From assembly GCF_003334765.1 (NCBI RefSeq), contig NZ_QOWT01000007.1: 64,000 bases of DNA; one strand, given 5' to 3'. Position numbers and translations under genes: made by a program. Below, piece after piece: positions 295 through 41,597 of this stretch (position 1 is its first letter; the number at the start of each line of letters is the position of its first letter). Origin of the DNA: Escherichia coli (GTDB lineage Bacteria > Pseudomonadota > Gammaproteobacteria > Enterobacterales > Enterobacteriaceae). The notes beneath the pieces are model-generated. The model searched no databases, had not been told where the DNA came from, and was given only the letters and a program-made list of their open reading frames with translations.

Positions 295-392
295 GCCTGA
301 TGCGCTACGCTTATCAGGCCTACGAAAATCTTGCAATGTATTGAATTTTCATGATTTTGTAGGCCGGATAAGGCGTTCACGCCGCATCCGGC
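295..392. repeat. REP/RIP (BIME-like) intergenic element: two inverted REP units flanking an AT-rich core
   Basis: GCCTGATGCGCTACGCTTATCAGGCCTAC ... TTGAATTT ... GTAGGCCGGATAAGGCGTTCACGCCGCATCCGGC; a near-identical architecture recurs at 50402-50480. Confidence 0.55.
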
Positions 393-10250: not shown

Positions 10251-10423
10251 AATAAATTCATCTGTTGATCGTGGGTGTTGGCCTGATGAGTTATAGCGAT
10301 CCCTTGCTGAAAATAACATCATCATTACGTCGCACTGTGGCGGCTATCGCACTTTAACGTTTCGTGCTGCCCCCTCAGTCTATGCAATAGACCATAAACT
10401 GCAAAAAAAAGTCCGCTGATAAG

Positions 10424-10453
10424 GCTTGAAAAGTTCATTTCCAGACCCATTTT
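10424..10453 (+). promoter_or_regulatory. Sigma-32 heat-shock promoter of ibpAB
   Basis: CTTGAAA (10424-10430) and CCCATTTT (10446-10453) match the sigma-32 consensus CTTGAAA / CCCCATNT. Confidence 0.5.
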
Positions 10454-10459
10454 TACATC

Positions 10460-10555
10460 GTAGCCGATGAGGACGCGCCTGATGGGTGTTCTGGCTACCT
10501 GACCTGTCCATTGTGGAAGGTCTTACATTCTCGCTGATTTCAGGAGCTATTGATT
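10460..10555 (+). promoter_or_regulatory. ibpA 5' UTR (ROSE-like RNA thermometer region)
   Basis: About 95-nt leader between the sigma-32 promoter and the ibpA ATG, ending in SD AGGAGC; ibpA is a described RNA-thermometer-controlled gene. Confidence 0.45.
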
Positions 10556-10969
10556 ATGCGTAACTTTGATTTATCCCCGCTTTACCGTTCTGCTATTGGA
10601 TTTGACCGTTTGTTTAACCACTTAGAAAACAACCAGAGCCAGAGTAATGGCGGCTACCCTCCGTATAACGTTGAACTGGTAGACGAAAACCATTACCGCA
10701 TTGCTATCGCTGTGGCTGGTTTTGCTGAGAGCGAACTGGAAATTACCGCCCAGGATAATCTGCTGGTGGTGAAAGGTGCTCACGCCGACGAACAAAAAGA
10801 GCGCACCTATCTGTACCAGGGCATCGCTGAACGCAACTTTGAACGCAAATTCCAGTTAGCTGAGAACATTCATGTTCGTGGTGCTAACCTGGTAAATGGT
10901 TTGCTGTATATCGATCTCGAACGCGTGATTCCGGAAGCGAAAAAACCGCGCCGTATCGAAATCAACTAA
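10556..10969 (+). CDS. ibpA: Small heat shock protein IbpA
   Basis: 137 aa starting [24 protein letters not shown]; alpha-crystallin domain; the track start at 10550 is TTG. Confidence 0.95.
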
Positions 10970-11080
10970 TTCCCTAAGGCCGCCTGGCGCGGCCTGACAT
11001 CTCCATGCTCGCCGTCAGGGAGCATATGCGAATCTTCGGATTTGCAGGTACTTACTCGCTTCTTAGAAGGAGAAATGACT

Positions 11081-11509
11081 ATGCGTAACTTCGATTTATC
11101 CCCACTGATGCGTCAATGGATCGGTTTTGACAAACTGGCCAACGCACTGCAAAACGCCGGTGAAAGCCAGAGCTTCCCGCCGTACAACATTGAGAAAAGC
11201 GACGATAACCACTACCGCATTACCCTTGCGCTGGCAGGTTTCCGTCAGGAAGATTTAGAGATTCAACTGGAAGGTACGCGCCTGAGCGTAAAAGGCACGC
11301 CGGAGCAGCCAAAAGAAGAGAAAAAATGGCTGCATCAAGGGCTTATGAATCAGCCATTTAGCCTGAGCTTTACGCTGGCTGAAAATATGGAAGTCTCTGG
11401 CGCAACCTTCGTAAACGGTTTACTGCATATTGATTTAATTCGTAATGAGCCTGAACCCATCGCAGCGCAGCGTATCGCTATCAGCGAACGTCCCGCGTTA
11501 AATAGCTAA
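11081..11509 (+). CDS. ibpB: Small heat shock protein IbpB
   Basis: 142 aa from the ATG at 11081 ([24 protein letters not shown]); paralog of IbpA. Confidence 0.9.
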
Positions 11510-11523
11510 CTAGCTATTCTCTT

Positions 11524-11552
11524 TGCCCCGCCATTCTGGTGGGGCTTTTTTT
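11524..11552 (+). terminator. Rho-independent terminator of ibpAB
   Basis: GCCCCGCCA ... GGTGGGGC hairpin followed by TTTTTTTTG. Confidence 0.6.
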
Positions 11553-11704
11553 GTCTTACTTACTCAACAATGCGTTAAATTTCGACTGTTTAAGATATTT
11601 CGGCACGTTCTTTCCCGTGATAATGTGCGCTATAAGGCAAATCTGCTTCACCGATTCAGCCATAATCCGTAGCAATTAAAATGTTATCTCAAGAGAAATG
11701 GACG

Positions 11705-19814: not shown

Positions 19815-20908
19815 CGGAAAAAGAGATTAGCCTGTGGCGCAATGGCCTAAACAGCGTCGAAGATTTACAGGCGAACCATATCGACGAAACCTTCACCTGG
19901 GCGCATCGTATCAGCAATCGGGCGGTGGATTTTCTGCAACAGCCTGCGCGCGCAGACGAGCCTTTCCTGATGGTGGTTTCGTATGATGAGCCGCATCACC
20001 CGTTCACCTGTCCGGTGGAGTATTTAGAGAAATACGCTGATTTTTACTACGAGCTGGGCGAGAAAGCACAGGATGACCTGGCTAACAAACCGGAACATCA
20101 CCGCTTATGGGCGCAGGCGATGCCATCGCCAGTCGGTGATGACGGGCTTTATCACCATCCGCTCTATTTTGCCTGTAATGACTTTGTTGATGACCAAATC
20201 GGACGGGTCATCAATGCCTTAACGCCAGAGCAACGTGAAAATACGTGGGTTATTTATACCTCCGATCACGGCGAAATGATGGGCGCACATAAGCTGATCA
20301 GTAAAGGGGCGGCGATGTATGACGACATCACCCGCATTCCGCTGATCATCCGTTCGCCGCAAGGGGAGCGGCGACAGGTCGATACGCCAGTCAGTCATAT
20401 CGATTTACTGCCGACAATGATGGCGCTGGCAGATATTGAAAAACCAGAGATTCTGCCGGGGGAAAATATCCTTGCCGTGAAAGAGCCACGCGGCGTGATG
20501 GTGGAATTTAACCGCTACGAGATTGAGCATGACAGCTTTGGCGGTTTTATTCCGGTGCGTTGCTGGGTGACGGATGACTTTAAACTGGTACTCAACCTCT
20601 TCACCAGTGATGAACTTTACGATCGCCGTAATGACCCAAATGAAATGCATAACCTGATCGATGATATCCGTTTTGCAGACGTTCGCAGCAAAATGCATGA
20701 CGCCTTATTGGATTACATGGACAAAATTCGCGATCCGTTCCGCAGTTACCAATGGAGTCTGCGTCCGTGGCGTAAAGATGCACGGCCGCGCTGGATGGGG
20801 GCGTTTCGTCCACGTCCACAAGATGGCTATTCGCCAGTTGTACGCGACTATGACACCGGCCTACCGACACAAGGGGTGAAGGTGGAGGAGAAAAAACAGA
20901 AGTTCTGA
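19514..20908 (+). pseudogene. yidJ: Cys-type sulfatase YidJ, 5'-truncated (no start codon ahead of the catalytic motif)
   Basis: Sulfatase frame is open only from 19514 (TGA at 19511-13) and begins QLAAEGIRFNSAYTCSPVCTPARAGLFTG (C-x-P-x-R FGly motif); first in-frame ATG is at 19664, downstream of the motif. Confidence 0.7.
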
Positions 20909-24518: not shown

Positions 24519-24591
24519 TAATATTTGGACAAAACGCAAACTGTGATCGATACTCAACTATGCACTAAATACGTCAAAATTCGTGCCGAAA

Positions 24592-24620
24592 TTGCGCGTT
24601 CTGCGCGGAACACGTATACT
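24592..24620 (+). promoter_or_regulatory. Candidate sigma-70 promoter of IstR-1
   Basis: TTGCGC (24592-97), 17-bp spacer, TATACT (24615-20), placing the start near 24627. Confidence 0.4.
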
Positions 24621-24626
24621 TTCAGT

Positions 24627-24701
24627 GTTGACATAATACAGTGTGCTTTGCGGTTACCAGCCGCAGGCGACTGACGAAACCTCGCTCCGGCGGGGTTTTT
24701 T
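24627..24701 (+). ncRNA. istR: IstR-1 antitoxin sRNA (about 75 nt)
   Basis: Starts GTTGACATAATACAGTGTGCT, a 20/21 direct-repeat copy of 24369-24389 in the tisAB leader (so antisense to the divergent transcript); ends in hairpin CCTCGCTCCGGCGGGG plus TTTTTT. Confidence 0.55.
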
Positions 24702-41502: not shown

Positions 41503-41597
41503 TGGCGGAAGATCACAGGAGTCGAACCTGCCCGGGACCGCTGGCGGCCCCAACTGGATTTGAAGTCCAGCCGCCTCACCGGAGACGACGATCTTCC
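41503..41597 (-). tRNA. selC: tRNA-Sec (selenocysteine tRNA, UCA anticodon)
   Basis: Reverse complement is GGAAGATCGTCGTCTCCGGTGAGGCGGCTGGACTTCAAATCCAGTTGGGGCCGCCAGCGGTCCCGGGCAGGTTCGACTCCTGTGATCTTCCGCCA, the 95-nt E. coli selC sequence with the long variable arm. Confidence 0.97.

Follow-up and report, generated by a model that had tools for sequence, protein, structure and literature searches.

Sigma-32 promoter and ROSE-type thermometer leaders in the native control region of the Escherichia coli ibpAB operon

How is a two-gene small heat-shock operon controlled from the DNA that precedes each of its genes? The locus analysed here raised this question because a first-pass annotation, made from the letters of the sequence, had read positions 10424-11080 as heat-shock control elements of ibpAB, that is, a sigma-32 promoter followed by structured leaders. 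All coordinates refer to the window, the whole stretch of 64,000 nucleotides of E. coli DNA that was analysed. Positions 10300-11600 of the window were 100% identical to RefSeq E. coli chromosomes, and this segment occurred once in 5,420 of 5,426 complete genomes; a query coverage of at least 80% was reached in 5,418 of the 5,426. In the annotated genome, the operon is preceded by yidQ on the minus strand and followed by yidE. The coding frames, listed in Table 1, run from an ATG at 10556 to a stop codon at 10967-10969 for ibpA and from an ATG at 11081 for ibpB. The wider window, with istR and tRNA-Sec, also fits the chromosomal surroundings of ibpAB. In a scan of the window with Rfam models, ROSE_2 was the sole cis-regulatory family to exceed its threshold. 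These results lead us to conclude, with high confidence, that the region natively controls ibpAB, the small heat-shock operon of E. coli, and comprises a sigma-32 promoter and ROSE-type thermometers before both genes. The promoter and the thermometers are textbook elements of heat-shock control and the ROSE element is already annotated in RefSeq; the locus serves as a positive control, its sigma-32 promoter and thermometer leader having been recognisable from raw sequence. What the comparative data provide are small additions: a division of the ibpB spacer into modules supported by covariation, parts of which may already stand in Gaubig et al. 2011, and a conserved hairpin core as a candidate for mutation.

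Table 1. Features of the ibpAB locus and of the surrounding window, in window coordinates
Feature	Position	Strand	Evidence and details
ES036/CssrF sRNA, short match	316-358	-	44.8 bits vs threshold 37.6
Sigma-32 promoter, -35 box CTTGAAA	10425-10431	+	Exact match; ortholog conservation
Sigma-32 promoter, -10 box CCCATTTT	10446-10453	+	Exact match, 14 nt past CTTGAAA; ortholog conservation
ibpA 5' untranslated leader	10460-10555	+	~96 nt; putative +1
Hairpin I	10460-10498	+	-18.5 kcal/mol at 37 C; stem, bulged G and CC/GG step closing a 4-nt loop in the apex at 10470-10492
ROSE_2 (Rfam RF01832)	10490-10562	+	Full length, model 1-73 of 73; 100.4 bits vs gathering score 65, E = 2.9e-23
Hairpin II, CCUGUCC...GGAAGG	10501-10522	+	-9.0 kcal/mol at 37 C; in ROSE_2 consensus structure; near-invariant sequence in orthologs
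Hairpin III (thermosensor), CUC-G-CUG / AUUU / CAGGAG	10530-10546	+	ROSE_2 alignment; UCGCU 10531-10535, bulged G10533, SD AGGAG 10542-10546
ibpA CDS	10556-10969	+	137 aa; ORF list and RefSeq annotation transferred from identical chromosome
Reported sigma-54 motif for ibpB, TGGTAAATGGTTTGCT	10890-10905	+	Inside ibpA; PMC2831329, -185 to -168 from ibpB ATG
Spacer hairpin a (GC clamp)	10977-10995	+	8 nt past ibpA stop; -12.8 kcal/mol; without U-run
Spacer hairpin b, AUGCUC-G-CC-GUCA-GG-GAGCAU	11005-11025	+	Covariation; aligns to first hairpin of Rfam ROSE RF00435
Spacer hairpin c (variable)	11027-11046	+	-8.4 kcal/mol
Spacer hairpin d (ibpB SD hairpin), CUC-G-CUUC / UUA / GAAGGAG	11055-11072	+	UCGCU 11056-11060, bulged G11058, GAAGGAG 11066-11072, SD 11068-11072
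ibpB CDS	11081-11509	+	142 aa; ORF list and RefSeq annotation transferred from identical chromosome
Operon intrinsic terminator	11525-11552	+	Terminator scan; GCCCCGCCA-UUC-UGGUGGGGC then U-run
istR sRNA	24572-24701	+	150 bits
tRNA-Sec (selC)	41503-41597	-	RNA-family match

For the comparative part of the analysis, orthologous loci were gathered with a coding seed, the MRNFDLSP N-terminus of IbpA, so that the RNA elements did not bias the sampling. In this way, 61 unique regions upstream of ibpA and 44 spacers from tandem ibpA-ibpB loci were obtained from Enterobacterales.

The promoter had been written in the first-pass annotation as CTTGAAA-N15-CCCATTTT. Both boxes were found as stated but the spacing was not, since the gap between them is 14 nt and becomes 15 only when it is counted from TTGAAA to CCATTT. 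The match to the sigma-32 consensus was nevertheless borne out: the site fits NNCTTGAA-N13-18-CNCCATAT as quoted in PMC3669281, where the -35 element is CTTGAA(A) and is followed, after about 13-18 nt, by a -10 element of the CCCCATNT type. When both strands of the 64-kb window were searched, the strict form TTGAAA-N13-16-CCCAT occurred once. A relaxed sigma-32 pattern occurred twice in the window; the second site, at 2415-2443, is antisense within a 257-aa ORF and was taken as a chance match. Among the 61 unique Enterobacterales upstream regions, 49 carried both boxes at a fixed spacing (the -35 box as TTGAAA or TTGATA) and the remainder were mostly near-variants; the -10 box had the form CCATTT in 39 of the 49 matching orthologs. 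Uniqueness of the strict form in the window, together with its conservation in orthologs, argues that the ibpAB promoter pattern is not due to chance. Published work places ibpAB transcription under sigma-32 control (bioRxiv 10.1101/2020.04.20.050740; PMC10474464). From the geometry of the promoter and the start of the conserved hairpin I, the +1 of ibpA was placed near 10460 as a putative position, which gives a leader of about 96 nt before the ATG and agrees with the length of about 95 nt estimated earlier. The sigma-32 holoenzyme would thus initiate near this point and produce a bicistronic transcript reaching the terminator downstream of ibpB. At 10404-10416, some 10-20 nt ahead of the -35 box, a run of A residues is followed by GTC (AAAAAAAAGTCCG), and many ibpA promoters of Enterobacterales carry a similar AAAGTC(A/C)G in the corresponding position. 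Judged by its letters and position, this site is a possible UP-like element or site for a regulator.

We then examined the leader of ibpA. The earlier reading that ibpA is an RNA-thermometer gene was supported by the Rfam score, by the RefSeq annotation, whose ROSE feature spans exactly the interval 10490-10562, and by the literature (bioRxiv 10.1101/2020.04.20.050740; PMC3669281). According to PMC10474464, a ROSE element comprises 2-4 hairpins, lies in the 5' UTR of a small heat-shock gene and measures from 60 to over 100 nt; with its three hairpins and approximately 96 nt, the ibpA leader falls within this size and layout. The Rfam model begins at 10490 and most of hairpin I consequently lies outside it. 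In 58 aligned leaders, five pairs of the hairpin I apex each showed 7-15 double-sided compensatory changes around an invariant GCC/GGG core. Hairpin III followed another pattern; its pairs in 58 sequences were either invariant or changed on one side, from C to U, leaving a G.U pair. Because CUC-G-CUG pairs with CAGGAG, the ibpA SD lies opposite the ROSE signature UCGCU, and the pairing of U(U/C)GCU with the SD across a bulged G is the hallmark of ROSE elements (PMC3669281). Of the ibpA-like leaders, 60 of the 61 close ones and 47 of the 49 distant ones, the latter from alpha- and gamma-proteobacteria, had the U(U/C)GCU signature no more than 60 nt from the start codon. Evaluated singly, hairpin III had a free energy of -5.0 kcal/mol at 30 C, -4.1 at 37 C and -3.4 at 42 C, and it was the weakest hairpin of the ibpA leader. 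Thermometers in the 5' UTRs of ibpA and ibpB have been reported from probing and reporter assays, according to bioRxiv 10.1101/2020.04.20.050740, which cites Waldminghaus 2009 and Gaubig 2011. As far as the E. coli ibpA ROSE-like thermometer (RF01832; Waldminghaus et al. 2009) is described in the papers that cite it (PMC3669281, PMC10410725), the element in the window is identical to it, with no differences from that description.

Next, the sequence between the two genes was analysed. The spacer had been given as 111 nt and this value is exact, with limits at 10970-11080. It folds into four hairpins, designated a, b, c and d. When whole spacers were aligned with MAFFT and folded with RNAalifold, the SD hairpin d was the only one recovered, and motif-anchored sub-alignments were needed for the hairpins upstream. 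In hairpin b, 96.2% of cells were paired, compared with 84.9% in shuffles (0 of 500 reached the observed value) and 38-58% when the partners were slid, and three of its pairs showed double-sided changes. Hairpin c was represented in orthologs by other sequences or by no hairpin, being missing from several Citrobacter and Kluyvera loci with spacers of 92-97 nt. In hairpin d, on the other hand, seven pairs were essentially invariant in 41 sequences, with a variable loop and UUGCU as the only variant of the motif; its free energy, evaluated singly, was -5.1 kcal/mol at 30 C, -4.0 at 37 C and -3.2 at 42 C. None of the ROSE models reached its gathering score on the spacer (19.3 bits vs 45 for RF00435, 18.5 vs 43 for RF02523 and 15.2 vs 65 for RF01832), although these three families ranked as the top 3 of 4,227 Rfam families when the spacer was scanned alone (E = 0.06-0.6). 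For this reason, we call the ibpB leader ROSE-like in design and not a member of the family by curated score. A thermometer upstream of ibpB has been reported, as stated in bioRxiv 10.1101/2020.04.20.050740 with reference to Gaubig 2011; in so far as this source and the Gaubig et al. 2011 study that it cites are represented there (Miwa et al.), the element concerned is the same 111-nt spacer, through which IbpA represses translation.

The GC-rich hairpin that the first-pass annotation had singled out in the spacer, GGCCGCCTGGCGCGGCC, is present at 10978-10994 and corresponds to hairpin a. This hairpin does not occlude the SD; the SD of ibpB pairs with UCGCU across a bulged G in the separate hairpin d. 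Alignment of 35 sequences showed that the GC clamp has seven pairs, four of them with compensatory changes. Work by Gaubig in 2011 is said to have found that RNase E cuts the bicistronic ibpAB mRNA into monocistronic transcripts. The most probable roles of the clamp would be to guard the processed, monocistronic ibpA mRNA at its 3' end against 3' exonucleases and to keep ribosomes terminating at the ibpA stop from interfering as the ibpB leader folds.

Folding of the leaders at 30 and 42 C had been proposed as the way to check the thermometers, and its outcome was mixed. The SD hairpins do exist when they are considered singly and they weaken on warming, their stability falling by 1.6-1.9 kcal/mol from 30 to 42 C, but neither the minimum free energy (MFE) fold of the whole ibpA leader nor the predicted SD exposure gave clear temperature-dependent sequestering of the SD. 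At 30 and 37 C, an alternative 3' pairing replaces hairpin III in this MFE structure, and the ensemble exposure of the SD, obtained from a temperature series on full leaders, was predicted to be about 0.45-0.5 at all temperatures. Stability z-scores of the whole leaders were -1.79 for ibpA and -1.42 for the spacer and were not significant alone. At 37 C the two SD hairpins had energies of -4.1 and -4.0 kcal/mol, compared with -8.4 to -18.5 kcal/mol for the other hairpins. RNA-thermometer hairpins are marginally stable by design, and ROSE elements use non-canonical pairs that are absent from the energy model. The first-pass annotation would have given up the thermometers if no stable SD-sequestering structure was predicted; this yardstick was badly chosen because a genuine thermometer nearly falls short of it. 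The case for the thermometers rests on the covariance model, on conservation and on published probing and reporter work, and not on MFE folding. This is also a caution, since MFE folding alone, at two temperatures, would have left a real thermometer in doubt.

These elements can be assembled into a working model. At low temperature, the weak SD hairpins would shut the ribosome-binding sites of both ibpA and ibpB. On the ibpA side, two stable hairpins (I and II) would precede the short and weak hairpin III that holds the SD; warming would weaken hairpin III and allow the 30S subunit to bind. The spacer would repeat this thermometer logic for ibpB by means of the diverged ROSE-like hairpins b, c and d. 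A rise of about 12 C, which removes 1.6-1.9 kcal/mol from each SD hairpin, would probably be sufficient for the modest induction reported, a ROSE-type thermometer alone giving an approximately 4-fold effect (PMC3669281). IbpA oligomers would act as a second lock on the leaders, one that answers to aggregates rather than to temperature.

Two alternatives concern the transcript that carries the ibpB leader. If the GC hairpin after ibpA were an intrinsic terminator or attenuator, most transcripts would end there. The strong 7-bp GC stem directly past the ibpA stop would suit such a role, and in Erwiniaceae with a single ibpA (loci L107, L037, L068, L050 and L014) a similar GCCGC/GCGGC stem after the gene does continue into a U-run and forms a true terminator. 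However, the U-run is missing in E. coli, where GACAUCUCC follows the stem, and in the other tandem species as well, and the terminator scan called only the site after ibpB. Because no U-run follows, we do not consider the clamp a terminator in E. coli, and regard termination at this point as very improbable. We infer instead that the clamp may be a terminator relic of the tandem ibpA duplication, from which the U-run was lost. The other alternative gives ibpB a sigma-54 promoter of its own within ibpA, so that the leader of ibpB would be no intercistronic spacer but a primary 5' UTR with a length of about 165 nt. In its favour, TGGTAAATGGTTTGCT fits the sigma-54 core pattern GG-N10-GC (TGGCAC-N5-TTGCA), is listed as a known promoter and gave a ChIP signal under sigma-54 overexpression (PMC2831329). 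A genome-scale sigma-54 ChIP study, in contrast, recorded background signal only at the ibpB motif and termed it misannotated (PMC4591121). In the orthologs, GG-N10-GC was kept in 30 of 32 unique segments, a figure that is confounded by codon usage: the motif overlies the Leu-Val-Asn-Gly-Leu-Leu codons of ibpA, its -12 TTGC reads CTGC in 27 of the 32, and since preferred CTG codons explain the retention of GG and GC, this conservation is uninformative on sigma-54. An internal sigma-54 promoter therefore seems to us decidedly unlikely, if slightly less so than termination at the clamp, and the sigma-32-driven bicistronic transcript is retained.

A further alternative accepts that transcript and concerns what its leaders do. 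They could act chiefly as operators for IbpA, in an autorepression coupled to decay by PNPase, with melting of the SD hairpins playing a minor part; this proposal overlaps the thermometer account. It has been published that IbpA binds the ibpA and ibpB leaders and the 5' region of rpoH and represses translation of all three through these regions until aggregates titrate it, and that SL1/SL2 variants lose repression whether they are weakened or strengthened (bioRxiv 10.1101/2020.04.20.050740; PMC10410725; PMC10981312). Involvement of PNPase in the post-transcriptional control of ibp is likewise taken from the literature. Also in favour of this proposal, the thermometer by itself achieves no more than about 4-fold induction (PMC3669281), and the loop-closing core YGCC-N4-GGG is kept more strictly than structure alone demands. 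Against it, SD hairpins with UCGCU and a bulged G work as thermometers in reporters whose transcription is temperature-independent (PMC3669281). Moreover, a motif scan found no YGCC-N4/5-GGG in the rpoH 5' region, itself an IbpA target, so that no shared operator sequence is evident; YGCC-N4-GGG as a common IbpA operator gained no support, although it may still serve as one in the two ibp leaders. On balance, a mainly operator role is a serious possibility, but we consider it somewhat less probable than its opposite. Clearly less likely still is a reading in which the Y-G-CC/4-nt loop/GG-G core does more than support the structure: it would be recognised specifically by IbpA oligomers or by some other factor and, jointly with the GC clamp, could determine the ratio of IbpA to IbpB expression. 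The conserved hairpin core is nonetheless a candidate to mutate in the search for the determinant of IbpA binding.

The same core bears on the origin of the ibpB leader. The hairpin I apex and hairpin b share one layout, consisting of a 6-bp stem, a bulged G, a CC/GG step and a 4-nt loop, and the invariant core Y-G-CC-N4-GG-G is common to both and to the first hairpin of RF00435. Over 128 kb of window sequence there were three occurrences of this core with a 6-bp flanking helix, two of them being the hairpin I apex and hairpin b. The third, a YGCC-N5-GGG hairpin at 20355-20366, lies inside a 414-aa ORF and was treated as a chance match. The rare core layout shared by the two leaders, together with the alignment of RF00435 to hairpin b, suggests that ibpB has as its leader a copy of the ibpA leader that was retained and has diverged. 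A profile of ibpA leaders, searched with nhmmer, found the ibpA leader only and did not detect the spacer; the resemblance behind the proposed copy is therefore confined to short modules.

Comparison with known thermometers placed both leaders in a wider context. Alpha-proteobacterial ROSE elements (RF00435; Bradyrhizobium ROSE1) have in common with them the multi-hairpin 5' UTR of a small heat-shock gene and the pairing of U(U/C)GCU with the SD across a bulged G, and in the first hairpin of RF00435 there is a GCC-N4-GG core, which aligns with hairpin b of the spacer. They differ in that the E. coli sequences are sub-threshold for this family (19.3 vs 45 bits) and in that transcription in E. 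coli starts from a sigma-32 promoter. The short ROSE-like ibpA thermometers of Pseudomonas (PMC3669281) share the sigma-32 promoter, the U(U/C)GCU-SD hairpin upstream of ibpA and an induction of about 4-fold, whereas they consist of two hairpins before a single ibpA, without a second thermometer in an operon spacer.

Two minor observations were made on the 3' side of the genes. Sub-threshold matches to the anti-hemB, Hrs1, PrrF and GcvB sRNA families, at 11481-11553, all fall on the terminator hairpin of ibpB and look like terminator look-alikes. In two Aeromonas loci (L042 and L045), ibpA is followed by a second ORF that starts with ATGCGTATCGAC, after a short spacer with its own ROSE-like hairpin (UAUUGCUUGAAUGAGGAUAG). 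The sequence of these loci suggests an independent arrangement of two genes that includes a second thermometer.
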